The position numbers and the translations under genes were made by a program. Positions 5,883 through 15,466 of a stretch of 64,000 bases of DNA are shown piece by piece. This DNA is from Paracoccaceae bacterium. GTDB lineage: Bacteria > Pseudomonadota > Alphaproteobacteria > Rhodobacterales > Rhodobacteraceae. The stretch is taken from NCBI GenBank assembly GCA_046348855.1, contig JAXMDK010000016.1:36721-100720 (forward strand), written 5' to 3'. The notes below the pieces were generated by a model. The model saw only the letters and a list, made by a program, of their open reading frames with translations, did no database searches and was not told the DNA's origin. Each line of letters opens with the position of its first letter. The stretch's first letter is position 1.

Positions 5883-6800
5883 TCAACCGGGCAGGTTGGC
5901 GGTGCCGTCGGGATCGGCGGCCTGATCGACCAGCCAGGCGCGGAAGGCCTGCAGCGGCGGATACCATTCGCCGACCTTGGGCCAGACCAGGAAATAGCTG
6001 CCCTCGGCCAGCGTCGGCCGGCCCCAGGCGGCGACCAGCCGCCCGTCGGCCAGTTCCGACTGGGCCAGGAACTCCGGCAACAGCGCCACCCCCATGCCGT
6101 AGATCGCCGACTGGATCATGGTGGCGAACTGGTCGAACAGCATCCCCGTGGGCGGCCGCGCCTCGACCCCGTGCTGGCGGAACCAGCTGGCCCAGGCGGT
6201 CGGGCGGGTCTCCAGCTGCAGAAGCGGCAGGTCCAGCAGGCTTTCGGGGCCGCCGACCGGATGCGCCTCCAGGAACTGCGGCGCGCAGCAGGCCACCAGC
6301 CGTTCGTCGAACAGTTTCTGGAACCCGGCATTCGGCCAGGTCGCCGCGCCGAAATGGATGGCGGCGTCGAAGCCCTCCTCCTCGAAGTCGAAGGGCCGGA
6401 CCCTTGTGCCCAGGTTGATCGTCACGCCGGGATGGGCGGCCAGGAACCGCGGCAGGCGCGGCGCCAGCCAGCGGGTGCCGAAGGTCGGCAGGATCGCCAG
6501 CGAAAGCGTGCCGCCCCCGGTGTTCGACCGCACCCGCATCGACCCGCGCGAGATCAGGTCCAGCGCCTTGACCACATCGCGGGCATAGGCCATCGCCGCA
6601 TCGGTCGGCACCAGCCGGCGGCCTTCGCGCAGGAACAGCGCCACCCCCAGCTGCGCCTCGAGATTCTGGATCAGCCGGCTGACCGCACCCTGCGTCAGGT
6701 CCAGGTCGCGCGCCGCGGCCAGGGTCGACCCGGTGCGGCAGACCGATTCGAAGGCCTGCAGCAGGCTGACCGAGGGCAGAAGGCGGCGGGCGACGGCCAT
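5883..6800 (-). CDS. LysR-family regulator (GcvA/GcdR-like), divergent from the lysine/glutaryl-CoA operon
   Basis: LTQGAVSR HTH, PTFGTRWLAPRL, substrate-binding domain; divergent from the gcdH operon. Confidence 0.92.
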   Translation of the reverse strand: MAVARRLLPSVSLLQAFESVCRTGSTLAAARDLDLTQGAVSRLIQNLEAQLGVALFLREGRRLVPTDAAMAYARDVVKALDLISRGSMRVRSNTGGGTLSLAILPTFGTRWLAPRLPRFLAAHPGVTINLGTRVRPFDFEEEGFDAAIHFGAATWPNAGFQKLFDERLVACCAPQFLEAHPVGGPESLLDLPLLQLETRPTAWASWFRQHGVEARPPTGMLFDQFATMIQSAIYGMGVALLPEFLAQSELADGRLVAAWGRPTLAEGSYFLVWPKVGEWYPPLQAFRAWLVDQAADPDGTANLPG

Positions 6801-6897: not shown

Positions 6898-8103
6898 ATG
6901 TCCGATCCGTTCCGCCGCGCCGCCCGCATCGCCACTGTCGAGCTGTCGGAAATCCTGCAGGTGTCCGAAGCCGCCGCCGCGATGAAGAAGGCGGGCCACG
7001 ACGTGATCTCGCTCGGCACCGGCGAGCCCGACTTTCCGACGCCGCCCGCCGTCGTCGACGCCGCCCACCGCGCCGCCCAGGCCGGAGAGACCACCTATAC
7101 CGCCACCGCCGGCACCGCCGCGCTGCGCCAGGCGATTGCGGCGGATTGCGAACGGACCAACGGCTACCGGCCCGAACCCGCCGAAATCATCGTCTGCACC
7201 GGCGCCAAGCAGGTGATCTTCAATGCCATGTTCGCCACGCTGGAACCCGGCGACGAGGTCATCGTCGGCGCGCCCTACTGGACCAGCTATCCCGACATCA
7301 TCGGCGTCTGCGGCGGCAAGCCGGTGATCGTGCCGACCAAGGCCGACAGCGGCTTTGCCATCACCGCCGACCAGTTGCGCGCGGCGATCACCCCCCGCAC
7401 CCGCTGGCTCCTGCTCAATTCGCCCGGCAACCCGTCCGGCGCCGTCTATCACCGGGCGCAGCTTGACGCGCTGGCCGAGGTGCTGCGCGACCATCCCCAT
7501 GTCGGCATCATCGCCGACGAGATCTACCAGCACATCTGCTACGTGCCCTTCGCCTCGTTCCGCATGGTCGCCCCCGACCTCGCCGACCGCACGCTGATCG
7601 TGAACGGCGTGTCGAAAAGCTATGCGATGACCGGCTGGCGGATCGGCTGGGGGATCGCGCCCCGGCGGCTGATCGACGCGATGATCGCCGTCCAGGGACA
7701 GATCACCTCGGGCGCCTCGTCGGTCAGCCAGGCGGCGGCACTGGCGGCGCTGACCGGCGACCAGCAGATGCTGGCCGCGCGCAACGACGATTTCCGCGCC
7801 CGCCGCGACATGGTGCGCGACGCGCTGAACGCCACCGGCGTGATTCGCTGCGGGTCGGCCGACGGGGCCTTCTACCTGTTCCCCGACTGCACGCAGACCT
7901 TCGGCAAGACCGCGCCGGACGGAACAAGGATCGAAAAGGATGCCGACTTCTGCGCCGCCCTGCTAAGGTCCGAAGGTGTCGCGCTGGTTCCCGGCCGCGC
8001 CTTCGGCGTGCCCGGCCATTTCCGCCTGTCCTACGCCTATTCGCGCGCCTCGCTGACCGAGGCCTGCAAACGCATCGCCCGTTTCTGTCAATCGCTCGCC
8101 TGA
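6898..8103 (+). CDS. Class I/II aminotransferase, by context a 2-aminoadipate aminotransferase
   Basis: GEPDFPTP, NSPGNPSG, DEIY, GVSKSYAMTGWRIG. Confidence 0.88.
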   Translation: MSDPFRRAARIATVELSEILQVSEAAAAMKKAGHDVISLGTGEPDFPTPPAVVDAAHRAAQAGETTYTATAGTAALRQAIAADCERTNGYRPEPAEIIVCTGAKQVIFNAMFATLEPGDEVIVGAPYWTSYPDIIGVCGGKPVIVPTKADSGFAITADQLRAAITPRTRWLLLNSPGNPSGAVYHRAQLDALAEVLRDHPHVGIIADEIYQHICYVPFASFRMVAPDLADRTLIVNGVSKSYAMTGWRIGWGIAPRRLIDAMIAVQGQITSGASSVSQAAALAALTGDQQMLAARNDDFRARRDMVRDALNATGVIRCGSADGAFYLFPDCTQTFGKTAPDGTRIEKDADFCAALLRSEGVALVPGRAFGVPGHFRLSYAYSRASLTEACKRIARFCQSLA

Positions 8104-8112
8104 GGAACCATC

Positions 8113-9321
8113 ATGGCCCTGAAACCGAAAGACGCCCCCGACCTGTCCCGCTTCGACTGGGAAGATGCCTTCCGCCTGAACGACCAGCTGACCGAGGACG
8201 AGCGCATGATGCGCGACGCCGCCCGCGCCTATGCGGCCGAAAAGCTCCAGCCGCGCGTCACCGAGGCCTACCGCGACGAAAAGACCGATCCGGCGATCTT
8301 CCGCGAAATGGGCGCGATGGGCCTTCTCGGCGTCACCGTCCCCGAGGAATACGGCGGGCTGGGCGCCAGCTACGTCGCCTATGGCCTGGTGGCGCGCGAG
8401 GTCGAGCGGGTCGACAGCGGCTACCGCTCGATGATGTCGGTGCAGTCGTCGCTGGTCATGTATCCGATCTATGCCTACGGCTCGGAAGCGCAGCGCAAGA
8501 AATACCTGCCGAAACTCGCCTCGGGCGAATTCATCGGCTGCTTCGGCCTGACCGAACCCGACGCCGGTTCCGACCCCGCCGGCATGAAGACCCGCGCCAC
8601 GAAAACCGCGAGCGGCTATGTGCTGAACGGCTCGAAGATGTGGATCTCGAACGCGCCGATCGCCGACGTGTTCGTGGTCTGGGCCAAGTCCGAGGCGCAT
8701 GGCGGCAAGATCCGCGGCTTCGTGCTGGAAAAGGGTATGAAGGGCCTCTCGGCACCGAAGATCGGCGGCAAGCTTTCCTTGCGCGCCTCGATCACCGGCG
8801 AGATCGTGATGAAGGACGTGGAAGTTGGCGAGGACGCGCTTCTGCCGAACGTCGAGGGTCTGAAAGGCCCGTTCGGCTGCCTCAACCGCGCCCGCTACGG
8901 CATTGCCTGGGGGGTGATGGGCGCCGCCGAGGCCTGCTTCCACGCCGCCCGCCAGTATGGGCTCGACCGCAAGCAGTTCAACAAGCCAATCGCCCAGACC
9001 CAGATCTTCCAGCTGAAGCTCGCCAACATGCTGACCGAGATTTCGCTGGGGCTTCAGGCCTCGCTCCGCGTCGGCCGGCTGATGGACGAAGCCAACGCCG
9101 CGCCCGAGATGATCTCGATCATCAAGCGCAACAACTGCGGCAAGGCGCTGGAAATCGCCCGCCACGCCCGCGACATGCACGGCGGCAACGGCATCCAGGA
9201 AGATTTCCAGATCATGCGCCACATGGTCAACCTCGAAACGGTCAACACCTACGAGGGCACCCATGACGTCCATGCCCTGATCCTGGGCCGCGCCATCACC
9301 GGGCTTCAGGCCTTCTTCTGA
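8113..9321 (+). CDS. gcdH: Glutaryl-CoA dehydrogenase
   Basis: [56 protein letters not shown]. Confidence 0.96.
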
Positions 9322-9425: not shown

Positions 9426-11615
9426 ATGGATCGCGCCGATATCGTCCACGACAACTTCCTGCGCCGGGTGGCGGCGCGCGACTTTCCGGCCGGCACCGCG
9501 CCGGCGGGCCCGCTGACGGCCACCGACGCGGTCGCGGCCTACCGCGCCGGGTGTCTCACCCGCGCGCTCGACCGGCAGAGCCGGGCGATGCAGAAGGCCG
9601 GCCAGGGGTTCTATACCATCGGCTCCTCGGGGCACGAAGGTCTGGCGGCGGTGGCGCTGGCGCTCCGGCCAACCGACATGGCCTTCCTCCACTACCGCGA
9701 TGCCGCCTTCCAGATCGCCCGGGCCGGTCAGGTCGACGGCCAATCGATCGCCTGGGACATGCTCCTCTCCTTCGCTGCCTCGTCCGAAGACCCGATCTCG
9801 GGCGGGCGGCACAAGGTGCTGGGCTCGAAGGCGCTGAACATCCCGCCGCAGACCTCGACCATCGCCAGCCACCTGCCGAAGGCGGTGGGGGCGGCCTATG
9901 CCATCGGCGCGGCGCGCCGCCACCGGCCCGAACATCAGGAACTGCCCGACGATTCCATCGTCTATTGTTCGTTCGGCGACGCTTCGGCCAACCATGCGAC
10001 CGCCCAGACCGCCTTCAACACCGCCGGCTGGACCTCCTGGCAGTCGATCCCGCTGCCCTTGCTCTTCGTGTGCGAGGACAACGGCATCGGCATTTCCACC
10101 AAGACGCCGAAAGGCTGGATCGCCGCCGGGTTCCAGAACCGGCCGGGGCTGAAATATTTCCATTGCGACGGGCTTGATCTCTACGACACGTTCCGGGTGG
10201 CGCAAGAAGCCGCCGACTATGTGCGGACCCGCCGCAAGCCCGCCTTCCTGCATGTCAAGACCATCCGCCTTTACGGCCATGCCGGCGCCGACGTGCCGAC
10301 CACCTACCTTTCGCGCGAGGAGGTCGAGGCCGAGGAGGCGCACGATCCCTTGCTGCATGCGGTGCGGCTTCTCGACCAGGCCGGGGCGCTCTCGCCCGAT
10401 CAGGCGCTGGCGATCTATCAGGAAACCAACGCCCGCGTTCAGCGCGTCGCGGCCGAGGCGGTGACCCGCCCGCGGCTGAAGACGGCGGCCGAGGTCATGG
10501 CCAGCCTGATCCCGCCGAAACGCGCCTGCAAGCCCACCAACGGGCCGACCGCCGAAGCTCGCGCCACCGCCTTCGGCGCCGACATGAAGCAGATGGACGA
10601 GCCGCAGATCATGTCGCGGCTCATCAACTGGGCGTTGACCGACCTGATGCTGGCGCATGGCGAGATCGTCATGATGGGCGAGGATGTCGGCCGCAAGGGC
10701 GGCGTCTATGGCGTCACGCAGAAACTGTTCGCCCGTTTCGGACAGGACCGGATGATCGACACGCTGCTCGACGAACAGTCGATCCTCGGCCTTGCCATCG
10801 GCATGGCGCAGAACGGCTTCGTGCCGATGCCGGAAATCCAGTTCCTCGCCTATCTCCACAATGCCGAGGACCAGATCCGGGGCGAGGCGGCGACGCTGTC
10901 GTTCTTCTCGAACGGCCAGTACACCAACCCGATGGTGCTCAGGATCGCCGGCCTCGGCTATCAGAAGGGCTTCGGCGGCCATTTCCACAACGACAATTCG
11001 GTCGCCGTCCTGCGCGACATTCCCGGCGTCATCCTCGCGGTGCCGTCGAACGGCGCCGACGCCGCGAAGATGCTGCGCGAATGCGTGCGTCTGGCGCGGG
11101 AAGAGCAGCGGGTCGTGGTGTTCCTCGAACCGATCGCGCTTTACCCGATGCGCGACCTTCACGGCGAAAAGGACGGCGGCTGGATGTGCCGCTATCCCGA
11201 TCCGTCCGAGGTGATCCCCTTGGGCGAGGTCGGCGTGCATGGCGCGGGCGAGGATATCGCCATCGTCACCTTCGGCAACGGTTACTACCTGTCGCGCCAG
11301 GCCGAGGCGCGGCTGGCGGCCGGGGGCGTGAAGGCGCGCGTCATCGACATGCGCTGGCTGTCGCCCCTGCCGGCCGAGGCGCTGGTCACGGCGGTCGGGG
11401 GCGCGAAGCGTATCCTGGTCGTCGATGAAACCCGCCGGTCGGGCGGGGTGGCCGAAGCCTTGATGGCGCTCTTCGCCGAACGGACGAAGGTGCCGCTGGC
11501 CCGCCTGACCGCCGAGGACAGCTTCATCGCCACCGGCCCGGCCTATGCCGCCACCATGCCCTCGGCCGACAGTGTCTATTCCGCGGCAAAAGCCCTGATC
11601 GGGGGTGGGAAATGA
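9426..11615 (+). CDS. Fused 2-oxoacid dehydrogenase E1 alpha/beta (ThDP-dependent), candidate 2-oxoadipate decarboxylating component
   Basis: Alpha half: GHEG, HYRD, ThDP motif GDA...EDNGIGIS, RLYGH. Beta half: GEDVG, DEQSILG, EIQF, GGHFH. Start taken at MDRADIV. Confidence 0.88.
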   Translation: MDRADIVHDNFLRRVAARDFPAGTAPAGPLTATDAVAAYRAGCLTRALDRQSRAMQKAGQGFYTIGSSGHEGLAAVALALRPTDMAFLHYRDAAFQIARAGQVDGQSIAWDMLLSFAASSEDPISGGRHKVLGSKALNIPPQTSTIASHLPKAVGAAYAIGAARRHRPEHQELPDDSIVYCSFGDASANHATAQTAFNTAGWTSWQSIPLPLLFVCEDNGIGISTKTPKGWIAAGFQNRPGLKYFHCDGLDLYDTFRVAQEAADYVRTRRKPAFLHVKTIRLYGHAGADVPTTYLSREEVEAEEAHDPLLHAVRLLDQAGALSPDQALAIYQETNARVQRVAAEAVTRPRLKTAAEVMASLIPPKRACKPTNGPTAEARATAFGADMKQMDEPQIMSRLINWALTDLMLAHGEIVMMGEDVGRKGGVYGVTQKLFARFGQDRMIDTLLDEQSILGLAIGMAQNGFVPMPEIQFLAYLHNAEDQIRGEAATLSFFSNGQYTNPMVLRIAGLGYQKGFGGHFHNDNSVAVLRDIPGVILAVPSNGADAAKMLRECVRLAREEQRVVVFLEPIALYPMRDLHGEKDGGWMCRYPDPSEVIPLGEVGVHGAGEDIAIVTFGNGYYLSRQAEARLAAGGVKARVIDMRWLSPLPAEALVTAVGGAKRILVVDETRRSGGVAEALMALFAERTKVPLARLTAEDSFIATGPAYAATMPSADSVYSAAKALIGGGK

Positions 11616-12646
11616 CCCGCAAGACCGCCGTCGTCATCTGCCCTGGCCGGGGCACCTACACCAAGGCCGAGCTTGGCTATCTGGGCCGCCATTTCACCGA
11701 CAAGGCGCTCCTGGCCAGCTTCGACGCCACCCGCCGCGATCTCGGGCAGGACACGCTGTCGGCGCTGGACGGGGCGGCCAGCTATTCGGTAGCCCGCCAC
11801 ACCCGCGGCGACAATGCCAGCGGGCTGATCTATGCCTGCACGCTCGGCGACTTCCGCGCCATCGACGCGGGCAGGATCGACGTGGTCGCCGTCACCGGCA
11901 ATTCGATGGGCTGGTATTCGACGCTGGCCTGCGGCGGGGCACTGACCGCCGAAGGCGGGTTCGAGGTGGTCAACACGATGGGCACCCTGATGCAGGAAGC
12001 CCTGATCGGCGGCCAGATCATCTATCCGTTCCTGGGCGAGGACTGGCGGCCCGACCCGGCCAAGAAGGCCGGGCTGCTGGCGCTGGCGGCCGAGATCGGC
12101 GCCCGGCCCGGCCATGTGCTGGCCCTGTCCATCGACCTTGGCGGCATGCTGGTGCTGGCCGGAAACGACGCGGGGCTCAAGGCGTTCGAAACCTCGGTTC
12201 CGCCGGTTCAGGGCCGGTTCCCGATGCGGCTGGCCAACCATGCCGGCTTCCATTCGGCGCTGCAGGCGCCGGTCGCCGAACGCGGCCGCGCCCGGCTTTC
12301 GCCTTCGCTCTTCGGTCAGCCAAAGCTCCCCATGATCGACGGGCGCGGGGTCATCTGGTGGCCGGGGGCGACCGACATCCACCGGCTCTGGGATTATACC
12401 CTCGGCCACCAGGTGACCGAACCCTACGACTTCACCGCCGCCATCCGCATCGCCGCCCGCGAATTCGCCCCCGATCTCTTCATCATCACCGGCCCCGGTA
12501 CCACGCTCGGGGGCGCGGTTGCCCAGTCGCTGATCCTGGCGAACTGGCGTAACATGGGCGCGAAGGCCGATTTCCAGTCACTCCAGCAAACCGCGCCGCT
12601 TCTTGCCGCCATGGGCATGGAAGACCAGCGCGCCATCGTCACCTGA
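11612..12646 (+). CDS. FabD/ACP S-malonyltransferase-like acyltransferase (atypical)
   Basis: CPGRG (cf. FPGQG), GNSMG nucleophile motif (cf. GHSLG), AGFHS catalytic His, GPG; ATGA overlap with E1. Confidence 0.85.
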   Translation: MTRKTAVVICPGRGTYTKAELGYLGRHFTDKALLASFDATRRDLGQDTLSALDGAASYSVARHTRGDNASGLIYACTLGDFRAIDAGRIDVVAVTGNSMGWYSTLACGGALTAEGGFEVVNTMGTLMQEALIGGQIIYPFLGEDWRPDPAKKAGLLALAAEIGARPGHVLALSIDLGGMLVLAGNDAGLKAFETSVPPVQGRFPMRLANHAGFHSALQAPVAERGRARLSPSLFGQPKLPMIDGRGVIWWPGATDIHRLWDYTLGHQVTEPYDFTAAIRIAAREFAPDLFIITGPGTTLGGAVAQSLILANWRNMGAKADFQSLQQTAPLLAAMGMEDQRAIVT

Positions 12647-12656
12647 GGAGGTTTCC

Positions 12657-14156
12657 ATGACCCACGACGACATCCTGAAGGCCGCGGGCCTCACCAAGAC
12701 CGACCTGACCGGCGGCACGCTGGTCGTGCGCTCGCCCATCGACGGCGCCGAACTGGCCCGGCTGCATGAAACCGCCCCGGCCGACATGACCAAGGTCATC
12801 GCCCGGTCGCAGGCGGCGTTCAAGGCCTGGCGCGAAGTGCCGGCCCCGCGCCGGGGCGAACTGGTGCGGCTCCTGGGCGAGGAACTGCGCGCCGCCAAGG
12901 CGGAACTCGGCGCGCTGGTGACGCTCGAGGTCGGCAAGATCACCTCCGAAGGTCTCGGCGAAGTGCAGGAGATGATCGACATCTGCGATTTCGCCGTCGG
13001 CCTGTCGCGGCAGATCTACGGGCTGACCATCGCCTCGGAACGGCCCGGCCACCGGATGATGGAAACCTGGCATCCGCTTGGCCCCTGCGCGATCATCACC
13101 GCCTTCAACTTCCCGGTGGCGGTCTGGTCGTGGAACGCGGCGCTGGCGCTGGTCTGCGGCGACCCGGTGATCTGGAAACCGTCGGAAAAGACCCCGCTGA
13201 CCGCCATCGCCACCCAGAAGATCATGGACCGCGCCCTGAAACGCTTCGGCACCGACGCGCCCGAAGGCCTGTGCCAGCTGGTCATCGGCGGCCCGGCTAT
13301 CGGCGAGGCGCTGGTCGGCTCGAAGGACGTGCCGATCGTGTCGGCCACCGGCTCGACCCGCATGGGCGGGATCGTCGGGCCGAAGGTCTCGGCCCGCTGG
13401 GGCCGGCCGATCCTGGAACTGGGCGGCAACAATGCGATGATCGTCGCGCCCTCGGCCGACATGGACATGGCGGTGCGCGCCATCGTCTTTTCGGCGGTGG
13501 GCACCGCCGGCCAGCGTTGCACCTCGCTCCGCCGGCTGATCGCCCACAACTCGATCAAGGACGAGCTGGTGGCGAAACTGTCCAAGGCCTATGCCAGCCT
13601 GCCGGTCGGCGACCCGCGCAAGGGCACGACGCTGGTCGGCCCGCTGATCGACGCCGCCGCGAAGGACAAGATGCAGGCGATGCTGGGCCGCGCGACGGCC
13701 GAAGGCGGCAAGGTCCACGGCGGCAAGGTCGTCACCGACGGCGTGCCGGCCGGCAACTACGTCAGCCCTGCCATCGTCGAGATGCCCGGCCAGACCGAAA
13801 CGGTGCGCGAGGAAACCTTCGCCCCGATCCTCTATGTCCTCGGCTATGACACGCTGGACGAGGCCATCGCGCTCCAGAACGACGTGCCGCAGGGCCTGTC
13901 GTCCTGCATCTTCACCCTGAACATGCGCGAGGCCGAAACCTTCCTGTCGGCTTCGGGCTCGGACTGCGGCATCGCCAACGTCAACATCGGCCCCTCGGGC
14001 GCCGAGATCGGCGGGGCCTTCGGCGGCGAAAAGGAAACCGGCGGCGGCCGCGAATCGGGCTCGGACGCCTGGAAGGGCTACATGCGGCGGCAGACCAACA
14101 CCCTGAACTATTCGGCGAAACTGCCGCTGGCGCAGGGCGTTAAGTTCGACATCTGA
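12657..14156 (+). CDS. amaB: L-piperideine-6-carboxylate / aminoadipate-semialdehyde dehydrogenase (ALDH7 family)
   Basis: EGLGEVQEMIDICDFAVGLSRQ, ELGGNNA, GTAGQRCT, GAEIGGAFGGEKETGGGRESGSD; GAGGAG RBS. Confidence 0.9.
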   Translation: MTHDDILKAAGLTKTDLTGGTLVVRSPIDGAELARLHETAPADMTKVIARSQAAFKAWREVPAPRRGELVRLLGEELRAAKAELGALVTLEVGKITSEGLGEVQEMIDICDFAVGLSRQIYGLTIASERPGHRMMETWHPLGPCAIITAFNFPVAVWSWNAALALVCGDPVIWKPSEKTPLTAIATQKIMDRALKRFGTDAPEGLCQLVIGGPAIGEALVGSKDVPIVSATGSTRMGGIVGPKVSARWGRPILELGGNNAMIVAPSADMDMAVRAIVFSAVGTAGQRCTSLRRLIAHNSIKDELVAKLSKAYASLPVGDPRKGTTLVGPLIDAAAKDKMQAMLGRATAEGGKVHGGKVVTDGVPAGNYVSPAIVEMPGQTETVREETFAPILYVLGYDTLDEAIALQNDVPQGLSSCIFTLNMREAETFLSASGSDCGIANVNIGPSGAEIGGAFGGEKETGGGRESGSDAWKGYMRRQTNTLNYSAKLPLAQGVKFDI

Positions 14157-14181: not shown

Positions 14182-14209
14182 AAAGGCCCGCCATATTGGC
14201 GGGCCTTTT
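14182..14209 (+). terminator. Intrinsic terminator after the aldehyde dehydrogenase
   Basis: AAAGGCCCGCCA-TAT-TGGCGGGCCTTTT. Confidence 0.8.
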
Positions 14210-14336
14210 CGTCATTATGTGTATTAATTCATCAATTATGGCTGAAATGACCGAAGCAATCGCCAGCCGGACACAGCAGATTGCGCACCGAAGCGGCCCG
14301 CCATGCGCGGCCCCGACAAGAAGAAAAGGATAGATC

Positions 14337-15416
14337 ATGTCGTTCAGGAAAGTGGCCGTCCTCGGCCTGGGCAAAGTCGGCCATCTGGCCGCGGAACTTC
14401 TGGCGGAATCGGGCTTCGAGGTCACCGGCATCGACGCGCGCGACATCAAGGCGCCCTTCGCCACCCGCAAGGTCGACCTGAAGGATACCGCCGCCCTGGC
14501 CGACGTGCTGAAGGGGCAGGAGGCGATCCTGTCCTGCCTGCCCTACCACCTGAACATCGGCGTCTCGACCGTCGCCCACGGCCTTGGCCTGCACTATTTC
14601 GACCTGACCGAGGACGTGCCCACCACCAAACACATCCGCGAGCTTGCCAAGACCTCCAAGGGCATCATGGCGCCGCAGTGCGGCCTGGCCCCCGGCTTCG
14701 TCGGCATCGTCGGCGCCCACCTGGCCGACCAGTTCGACAAGGTCCGCTCGATCCGCCTGCGCGTCGGCGCGCTGCCGCAGAACCCCACCGGCCTTCTCGG
14801 CTATGCCTTCAACTGGTCGCCCGAAGGCGTCGTCAACGAATATCTGAACGACTGCGAAGTGATCGAGGAAGGCGTCCTGAAATCGGTCTCGGCGATGGAA
14901 TGGCTGGAAACCATCTACATCGACGGGATGCAGCTTGAAGCCTTCACCACCTCGGGCGGGCTCGGTACCATGTGCGAAACCTACGCCGACAAGATCGAGA
15001 ATCTCGACTACAAGACCATGCGCTACCCTGGCCATGTCAAGCTGATGAACTTCTTCTTCCACGAGCTTCTGATGCGCGAAAACCGGGCCGAGGCCGGCCG
15101 CATCCTGACCAACGCCAAGCCGCCGGTCGACGAGGATGTGGTCTATGTCCATGTCGCCGCCGAAGGCACCCAGAACGGCCAGATGCGCCGCAAGGAATTC
15201 GTGCGCTCCTACTATCCGATCGAGATCGGCGGCAAGCACCGCACCGCCATCGCCTGGACCACCTCGGCCTCGGTCGTCGCGGTGATCGAGATGGTGAACG
15301 AAGGCAAGCTGCCGCAGAAGGGCTTCCTCAAGCAGGAGGAAATCCCGCTGGAACCCTACCTGAAGACCCGGACGGGGAACTATTACAACGTCGGCCACAG
15401 AAGCCGGCACGCTTGA
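14337..15416 (+). CDS. Saccharopine dehydrogenase family, probable L-lysine 6-dehydrogenase
   Basis: GLGKVG, YFDLTEDV, PQCGLAPG, WSPEGVVNEY, FTTSGGLGT, YKTMRYPGH. Confidence 0.82.
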   Translation: MSFRKVAVLGLGKVGHLAAELLAESGFEVTGIDARDIKAPFATRKVDLKDTAALADVLKGQEAILSCLPYHLNIGVSTVAHGLGLHYFDLTEDVPTTKHIRELAKTSKGIMAPQCGLAPGFVGIVGAHLADQFDKVRSIRLRVGALPQNPTGLLGYAFNWSPEGVVNEYLNDCEVIEEGVLKSVSAMEWLETIYIDGMQLEAFTTSGGLGTMCETYADKIENLDYKTMRYPGHVKLMNFFFHELLMRENRAEAGRILTNAKPPVDEDVVYVHVAAEGTQNGQMRRKEFVRSYYPIEIGGKHRTAIAWTTSASVVAVIEMVNEGKLPQKGFLKQEEIPLEPYLKTRTGNYYNVGHRSRHA

Positions 15417-15436
15417 CCAGTGAGCGGGTTGATCGG

Positions 15437-15466
15437 GGGGCGGAGCGATCCGCCCCTTTCCTTTTT
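15437..15466 (+). terminator. Intrinsic terminator
   Basis: GGGGCGGA-GCGA-TCCGCCCC followed by a T-rich tract. Confidence 0.75.

Follow-up and report, generated by a model that had tools for sequence, protein, structure and literature searches.

What is a FabD-like protein doing in a lysine-catabolic operon, in a gene whose start codon overlaps the stop codon of a 2-oxoacid dehydrogenase gene? The question arises from a 64,000-nucleotide stretch of Paracoccaceae bacterium DNA (GenBank assembly GCA_046348855.1, contig JAXMDK010000016.1, positions 36,721 to 100,720 of the forward strand), called the window here. It encodes a 344-residue protein, P0001, directly behind a fused E1 alpha/beta thiamine-diphosphate (ThDP) dehydrogenase. 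An earlier note on this DNA had proposed that P0001 is an active Ser-His enzyme, a transferase or thioesterase, with a pocket remodelled for a longer dicarboxylic acyl group such as glutaryl. The results described below leave very little doubt that P0001 is not FabD, the malonyl-CoA:acyl carrier protein (ACP) transacylase, and we consider it probable that the protein acts together with E1 at the step from 2-oxoadipate to glutaryl-coenzyme A (glutaryl-CoA). The gene and the codons that matter for its comparison with FabD are located as follows.

11612–12646, plus strand: FabD-like Ser-His acyltransferase P0001, 344 amino acids, from the open reading frame (ORF) and its translation
11648–11650, plus strand: codon of Arg13, at the position of FabD Gln11, from the hhalign and HMMER register
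11900–11905, plus strand: codons of Asn97 and Ser98 in the GNSMG nucleophile elbow, corresponding to FabD His91-Ser92, from the alignment
11978–11980, plus strand: codon of Met123, at the position of FabD Arg117, the malonyl-carboxylate anchor, from the alignment
12251–12253, plus strand: codon of His214, the catalytic histidine (FabD His201), in the H-x-A-F-H-T/S motif, from the alignment

The register between P0001 and FabD was established in two ways. HMMER alignments were made to the solved FabDs 3hjv, 3h0p, 6smd and 5ypv, and a profile of the P0001 family (alignment A1, 41 diverse full-length members, 28–75% identity) was compared by hhalign with Escherichia coli K-12 FabD taken from NC_000913, the residue numbering of which was verified. 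The hhalign comparison (Prob 98.6, E 8e-16) gave a register identical to that from HMMER. All four motifs read in the earlier note are present in the ORF translation: CPGRGTY at residues 10–16, GNSMGWY at 96–102, VVNTMGTLMQEA at 119–130 and NHAGFHS at 209–215. In both alignments FabD Gln11 corresponds to Arg13, Gln14 to Tyr16, His91 to Asn97 and Arg117 to Met123. The two substitutions given in the note, Arg117 to Met and Gln11 to Arg, are therefore borne out by two independent alignments, and none of the alignments placed an arginine at the 117 position. The catalytic serine and histidine are kept, as the note had also claimed: FabD Ser92 aligns with Ser98, and FabD Ser200-His201 with Phe213-His214. 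FabD Gln250 is retained as Gln267. The Gln11-position residue forms part of the acyl-pocket lining in PksD and FabD, and malonyl is anchored by Arg117 (PMC11775670).

The AlphaFold2 model of P0001 has the FabD fold, with a pLDDT of 97.5. When the model was searched with Foldseek, the best matches were FabD/MCAT structures with TM scores of about 0.7–0.8 and 17–22% identity, and the PksD structure 8aw0 was among the structural matches. Judged by the traits that define FabD, P0001 has the fold and the Ser-His dyad, together with GRGTY in place of GQGSQ, GNSMG in place of GHSLG, and Met in place of Arg117.

These replacements are shared by the relatives of P0001. Among the 41 members of the family alignment, Ser98, Gly100 and His214 are invariant (41/41), Arg13 and Tyr16 are each found in 40 and Asn97 in 39. 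Column 123, which corresponds to FabD 117, contains Met in 32 members, Thr in three, Leu and Ala in two each, and Val and Ile in one each; Arg or Lys occurs in 0/41. Gln135 and Gln267 are further conserved pocket residues. Arg13, Met123 and the other replacements are thus conserved changes throughout the family, and not chance substitutions in a single sequence. The invariance of the dyad together with the conservation of pocket residues indicates that P0001 is an enzyme. The earlier note's view of an active Ser-His enzyme holds to this extent, backed by Ser98, His214 and the modelled fold; whether it is a transferase or a thioesterase we infer from other evidence, discussed below. The family signature, PGRG(S/T)Y, GNS(M/L)GWY, H-x-A-F-H-(T/S), DG-x-G and GPG in a protein of about 340–360 residues, is matched by P0001 in all its motifs. 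A sequence search of 1.8 billion representative proteins gave 151 clusters (50% identity) with E<1e-30, and relaxing the threshold to E<1e-3 raised the number to no more than 836; the family is therefore sharply separate from ordinary FabDs. It was found in at least 598 species genomes.

Scores against curated models gave the same picture. P0001 scored 35.8 bits with the fabD model TIGR00128, which has a cut-off of 260.9, and 36.4 bits with the mdcH model, which has a cut-off of 297.9. A Pfam scan (E<=0.01) gave no match to P0001, Acyl_transf_1 included. The true fabD of this genome (321 bits), followed by fabG, was located on another contig (C12). Relatives of P0001 are labelled 'ACP S-malonyltransferase' in the NCBI and JGI databases. 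For this family that label is unjustified and almost certainly wrong, as the earlier note had warned when it called such a name misleading.

To see what P0001 might do instead, we turn to the genes around it.

5883–6800, minus strand: LysR-family regulator, divergent, with HTH_1 and LysR_substrate domains
6898–8103, plus strand: class I/II aminotransferase (PF00155, 260 bits), a candidate 2-aminoadipate aminotransferase, this role by context only
8113–9321, plus strand: gcdH, glutaryl-CoA dehydrogenase-like acyl-CoA dehydrogenase, with Pfam Acyl-CoA_dh N, M and C domains
9426–11615, plus strand: fused E1 alpha/beta ThDP dehydrogenase, with Pfam E1_dh, Transket_pyr and Transketolase_C domains
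11612–11615, plus strand: ATGA overlap of the acyltransferase start and the E1 stop, with GGGGGTGGGA just before it, read from the sequence
12657–14156, plus strand: amaB, L-piperideine-6-carboxylate (aminoadipate semialdehyde) dehydrogenase (NF050084, 813.5 bits, cut-off 730)
14337–15416, plus strand: saccharopine-dehydrogenase-family, lysine 6-dehydrogenase (LysDH)-like protein, with Sacchrp_dh_C and Sacchrp_dh_NADP domains

The operon runs aminotransferase, gcdH, E1, acyltransferase, amaB, and the LysDH-like gene lies close downstream. GGAGG precedes the amaB start codon, ATG 12657, which lies 11 nucleotides beyond the acyltransferase stop. Given the ATGA overlap at one end and the 11-nucleotide gap at the other, the acyltransferase gene is embedded in a tightly packed operon. 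The gene set covers the conversion of lysine to 2-aminoadipate and 2-oxoadipate, and that of glutaryl-CoA to crotonyl-CoA. E1 and P0001 occupy exactly the gap between the two, from 2-oxoadipate to glutaryl-CoA. The glutaryl substrate proposed in the earlier note draws its support from this operon context (fused E1, gcdH, amaB, LysDH-like gene and aminotransferase), and the part of the proposal in which Arg13 becomes a repositioned carboxylate anchor is one that we infer from the position of the residue in the alignment.

Two of the reading frames open upstream of their likely starts. The E1 ORF opens at TTG 9390; relatives start at MDRA.., and the true start is probably ATG 9426, giving a protein of about 729 residues. 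The listed amaB ORF opens at TTG 12603, inside the acyltransferase gene, but its match to the NCBIfam model does not begin until residue 43. GGAGG-ATG is found at 12646–12659, and the real amaB start is most likely ATG 12657. Terminator-like hairpins lie at 14197–14214, after amaB, and at 15435–15458, after the LysDH-like gene, suggesting that the latter is transcribed apart from the five-gene operon.

The association between E1 and the acyltransferase was examined in 80 loci from named genomes, mostly of Paracoccaceae with some from Sphingomonadales, Hyphomicrobiales and Sedimenticola, encoding proteins 65–84% identical to P0001. A fused E1 gene lies directly upstream of the acyltransferase gene wherever upstream DNA is present, in about 72 of the 80 loci. 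Other neighbours are amaB (48 loci), a LysR regulator (40), gcdH (28, with orthologues at 78–96% identity adjoining E1), a LysDH-like gene (25) and an aminotransferase (20). When the ORFs of these loci were clustered, what remained besides the known lysine genes was mostly spurious antisense ORFs of GC-rich genomes. No polyketide synthase (PKS), bio or CoA-transferase gene is conserved near the pair in the 80 loci.

E1 adjacency was also seen for relatives at 52–67% identity, and it extends to more distant members in other surroundings. P0129 (44% identity) is encoded next to an E1 gene with a stop/start overlap, in the company of IclR, FAA-hydrolase and luciferase-like genes. P0219 (34% identity) has the same arrangement, overlap included, with an EamA transporter and a glycosyltransferase as neighbours. 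The E1-acyltransferase pair therefore appears to be a portable unit that is not confined to lysine clusters.

Some individual loci differ from this pattern or seem to extend it. For the most distant member, P0230 (28% identity), no E1 gene was called in the 392 nucleotides of upstream DNA present on its contig; the gene is followed by an 80-residue ORF without a Pfam match and by an asparagine-synthase-like gene, and it may represent a branch whose partner is a small carrier protein. In two distant metagenome cases, at 11282–11746 of locus L106 and on the contig of P0174, the next gene after the pair encodes an HD-domain (YfbR-like) protein. Locus L106 also contains an apparent natural fusion of E1 and acyltransferase (P0272, 1082 residues, L106 8001–11249, Ga0082021_1163826), the one such protein given by a search for longer, fused forms; it was rejected when tblastn revealed a frame change at about nucleotide 9728. 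The C-terminal third of E1 lies in another reading frame, which makes P0272 the product of reading through a frameshift in a metagenome contig and not a natural gene fusion.

The E1 of the window is related in the Protein Data Bank (PDB) to the alpha and beta chains of branched-chain 2-oxoacid dehydrogenase and pyruvate dehydrogenase (PDH) E1s, which are of the heterotetrameric type. In alignments with solved E1s, His297 falls on the histidine of the alpha-chain G-H-(H)-S..D loop and His533 on that of the beta-chain L/Y-H-S-D/Q-S (HSDS/HSQS) motif. We take these to be the two residues with which E1 enzymes reductively acylate the lipoyl arm. Pfam detected no extra redox domain in E1. The genome (88.5% complete) shows only two E2 cores, one SucB-type beside SucA and one in the PDH cluster. 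As there is no third E2 in the genome and the lipoyl-loading histidines are kept, the lipoyl domain used by E1 is probably a borrowed one, belonging to the complex of either 2-oxoglutarate dehydrogenase or PDH.

If the two proteins work together, they might also touch. Comparison of E1s encoded with and without the acyltransferase revealed a candidate contact site.

10434–10445, plus strand: E1 Arg349 and Arg352, in the helix ..TNARVQRV.., a candidate docking patch, from the comparison of partnered and unpartnered E1s

Among 73 partnered E1s, Arg349 is found in 99% and Arg352 in 100%, as against 2/12 and 1/12 unpartnered orthologues, in which the substitutes vary by clade. As a control, the 12 most divergent partnered E1s (60–76% identity) were treated as a mock group, and no column fell below 0.42. 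The total number of differing columns was seven both in the real comparison and in the mock control, and only the extremes, R349 and R352, are relied on. Two very distant pairs each keep one of the two arginines. When the complex of E1 alpha (50–370), E1 beta (408–741) and the acyltransferase was predicted, one control came within 0.20 of the score of the real complex. The partner-dependent arginines, together with translational coupling, suggest a docking site for the acyltransferase on the alpha part of E1.

FabD-fold enzymes shift acyl groups between thiol carriers by way of an acyl-serine. A reaction sequence along these lines may be envisaged for the pair. E1 most likely oxidatively decarboxylates 2-oxoadipate, which would be supplied from lysine by the LysDH-like enzyme, AmaB and the aminotransferase, and would thereby yield glutaryl-CoA, the substrate for GcdH. 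The orphan E1 would load glutaryl onto a borrowed lipoyl domain, and the acyltransferase, docked on the alpha part of E1, would move it from the S-glutaryl-dihydrolipoyl arm to Ser98, with His214 as base, and then to CoA. P0001 would in this way do or speed the job of an E2 catalytic core, helping or bypassing the borrowed one. The change of Arg117 to Met, with Arg13 in the pocket, could suit a carboxylate two carbons further out than that of malonyl. We put forward this transfer of glutaryl from lipoyl to CoA tentatively, as a possibility that falls somewhat short of an even chance, with substrate, donor, acceptor, docking and the role of Arg13 all proposed from comparative evidence. A broader generalisation, that a FabD-fold serine acyltransferase on a single-chain E1 functionally replaces the E2 core of the chloramphenicol-acetyltransferase (CAT) fold, as a portable two-gene module serving 2-oxoadipate here and other 2-oxoacids elsewhere, is more doubtful still.

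Several observations weigh against lipoyl-to-CoA transfer, foremost the distribution of the two genes. In a sample of 251 Rhodobacterales genomes, with E1 orthologues called at E<1e-100, 55 carry the acyltransferase, all with E1 adjacent, and 85 carry an E1 orthologue; 30 of these 85 are without any family member genome-wide. A repeat search with the family profile in five complete E1-only genomes gave best matches of 46–57 bits, far from E1 and probably the housekeeping FabD, and weaker matches in frames of about 2150 residues. In the E1 tree the E1-only sequences are interspersed with partnered ones, branching off at five or more distinct points. At 12 E1-only loci gcdH lies beside E1 in seven, in six of them with LysR too. 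E1 can thus evidently function without the acyltransferase, presumably by way of a borrowed E2, and the acyltransferase cannot be the sole route to the CoA thioester. Nor does the supply of E2 cores differ: five E1-only genomes contain 5, 4, 2, 2 and 3, and five with both E1 and acyltransferase contain 4, 3, 2, 2 and 2. These counts give no support to the idea that the acyltransferase replaces a missing E2, and two of the E1-only genomes hold just two E2 cores. The acyltransferase is accessory, dispensable for E1 in about a third of E1 carriers, and not an obligatory E2 substitute.

Other points on this side concern the protein and its surroundings. ORF clustering of the 80 loci revealed no conserved lipoyl, ACP, E2 or E3 neighbour gene, nor any conserved carrier gene. 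Arg13 is kept in P0129 and P0219, outside lysine clusters, which leaves its role as a glutaryl-specific anchor unproven and makes a general role possible. No FabD-fold enzyme acting on a lipoyl arm is known to us. Among the hallmarks of FabD-fold acyl hydrolases are an absent Arg117 equivalent and an absent histidine before the nucleophile (PMC11775670). Biochemical or genetic data on the family were not found in the literature searched.

The genes downstream of E1 in the E1-only loci are mutually unrelated; they encode in one case an ABC transporter, in another a DAO oxidoreductase, and in a third a ThDP enzyme together with a CoA-transferase. In this third case, at L097 8264–11144, E1 directly follows gcdH, and behind E1 come a ThDP enzyme resembling oxalyl-CoA decarboxylase and a CoA-transferase of family III. 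The 12 E1-only loci (L091–L102) contain no close amaB, LysDH or aminotransferase orthologue within about 6 kb, and amaB is adjacent in 48 of the 80 partnered loci. It may be that the acyltransferase moves together with the complete set of genes leading from lysine to aminoadipate.

The hallmarks just mentioned lead to the main rival explanation, in which P0001 is a thioester hydrolase that rides on E1 and removes glutaryl, or acyl groups loaded by mistake, from lipoyl arms and from other carriers unable to hand them on, for example from lipoyl domains of the PDH complex mis-acylated by the orphan E1, so freeing the borrowed carriers. The absence of Arg at the 117 position and the non-histidine residue before the nucleophilic serine are as in PksD-type acyl hydrolases (PMC11775670), PksD (8aw0) is a structural match, and a distribution that is accessory, with repeated losses, is what would be expected of a housekeeping or proofreading helper more than of a core step. 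The known hydrolases, however, keep Gln or His at the Gln11 position and usually Gln or His at 117, where this family has Arg and Met. Hydrolysis to free glutarate would moreover waste the thioester needed by GcdH, encoded two genes upstream, and no CoA-transferase is conserved in the cluster. We consider a hydrolase unlikely. Somewhat less likely again is a module independent of lipoyl groups, in which another acceptor oxidises the intermediate and the acyl group passes from ThDP to Ser98 to CoA with neither E2 nor E3. Such a module would fit the lack of any conserved E2, E3 or lipoyl-protein gene near the pair in the 80 loci, the translational coupling, and the movement of the pair as a unit into non-lysine contexts; but E1 has no extra redox domain, it keeps both histidines typical of lipoyl-dependent E1s, and its orthologues function in genomes without the acyltransferase, which argues for another, ordinary outlet.

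FabD-fold enzymes normally carry acyl groups from CoA to ACP, and P0001 could instead divert part of the glutaryl-CoA formed from lysine onto ACP as carrier protein, for instance for the BioZ pathway by which alpha-proteobacteria make pimeloyl-ACP and biotin. Alpha-proteobacteria do obtain the pimelate moiety of biotin from glutaryl-CoA that derives from lysine, and in Agrobacterium tumefaciens biotin synthesis is fed by 2-oxoadipate (PMC7645780), but BioZ is reported as being acylated directly by glutaryl-CoA (PMC7645780). With no bio or ACP gene in the conserved neighbourhood, and with the strict E1 adjacency and the partner-dependent E1 arginines left unexplained, a glutaryl-CoA:carrier-protein transacylase seems improbable. 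It is more improbable still that the protein is a non-catalytic structural or regulatory subunit of E1 that merely has a FabD-like shape. Its dispensability in many lineages and its apparent co-variation with an E1 surface patch would suit such a subunit, but Ser and His are invariant in all 41 members down to 28% identity and the pocket residues Arg13, Tyr16, Asn97, Gln135 and Gln267 are conserved, the pattern of an active enzyme. Least credible of all, and nearly negligible, is the function in the database label, a second malonyl-CoA:ACP transacylase. The FabD fold, the Ser-His dyad and the names given to relatives speak for it; against it are the replacement of Arg117 by Met, with Arg or Lys never found there in the family, the score of 35.8 bits against a cut-off of 260.9, the true fabD-fabG pair elsewhere in the genome, and a context that is catabolic and coupled to E1.

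If lipoyl-to-CoA transfer is what P0001 does, it would be the first FabD-fold enzyme to move an acyl group off a lipoyl arm, and the pair would represent a new architecture for the 2-oxoacid dehydrogenase class. Hundreds of alpha-proteobacterial genomes carry the gene under the name 'ACP S-malonyltransferase', and a lysine-catabolic step is concealed by it. The literature searched, including that on bacterial 2-oxoadipate dehydrogenase, on Phaeobacter lysine catabolism and on GapMind, contained no mention of the family or of the E1/acyltransferase pair. In the same literature no genes are assigned to the bacterial conversion of 2-oxoadipate to glutaryl-CoA, and for this conversion the operon provides a concrete candidate: a fused E1, which a FabD-fold partner may or may not accompany. 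Lineages with and without the partner, and an arginine patch that tracks it, make a ready-made experimental design. New in the present analysis are the residue-level mapping against E. coli FabD, the family statistics, the roughly one-third of E1 carriers that have E1 only, the partner-dependent arginines and the exposure of the fusion artefact.

Among known systems, E. coli FabD (TIGR00128, EC 2.3.1.39; PDB 1MLA, 2G2Z) resembles P0001 in its two-subdomain fold (Foldseek TM 0.73–0.82), in the places of the Ser-His dyad and in the glutamine at position 250 (Gln267 in P0001). It differs in the small-subdomain motif, VNFNSPGQ in FabD and LSIDLGGM in P0001, in lacking the C-terminal extension by which P0001 runs about 40 residues past the FabD alignment, and in its genetic setting, the gene for P0001 being coupled to E1 in a catabolic operon and not part of a fab cluster. 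The acyl hydrolases PksD and PedC of trans-acyltransferase PKS systems (8AVZ/8AW0; PMC11775670) share with P0001 the FabD fold, the lack of Arg at the malonyl anchor and a residue other than His before the serine. Unlike the P0001 family, with its Arg, they have a strictly conserved Gln or His at the Gln11 position (their Gln12, in the oxyanion loop), and at the 117 position they have Gln or His where P0001 has Met. They act on ACP domains in PKS clusters, whereas no PKS or ACP gene accompanies the 80 loci related to P0001.

For the proposed reaction the nearest counterpart is the animal 2-oxoadipate dehydrogenase complex, in which DHTKD1 (E1a) works with the shared DLST (E2o) and DLD (E3) (PMC9367764, PMC8146983, PMC10003691). 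Here too a dedicated E1 without E2 and E3 of its own serves the same proposed step. DHTKD1 is, however, a homodimeric E1 of the 2-oxoglutarate dehydrogenase type, whereas the E1 described here is of the heterotetramer type with alpha and beta fused, and animals have no FabD-like partner. The E2s of 2-oxoacid dehydrogenases (PF00198 and PF00364) differ from P0001, which is without a lipoyl domain, an E1/E3-binding domain and a CAT-fold core, and for which an E2-like function is a hypothesis. Actinobacterial OdhA uses the lipoyl domains of pyruvate dehydrogenase E2. This enzyme, OdhA/KGD, the 'two-in-one' 2-oxoglutarate dehydrogenase, provides a precedent for an E1 permanently joined to an acyltransferase without a lipoyl domain of its own (PMC10415282). 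In that enzyme a CAT-fold E2 core is fused to E1 in one chain, whereas here the partner is a separate FabD-fold Ser-His enzyme for which acyl-serine chemistry is proposed; should the proposal be right, this partner would carry out the E2 reaction in a second way, unrelated to the first.

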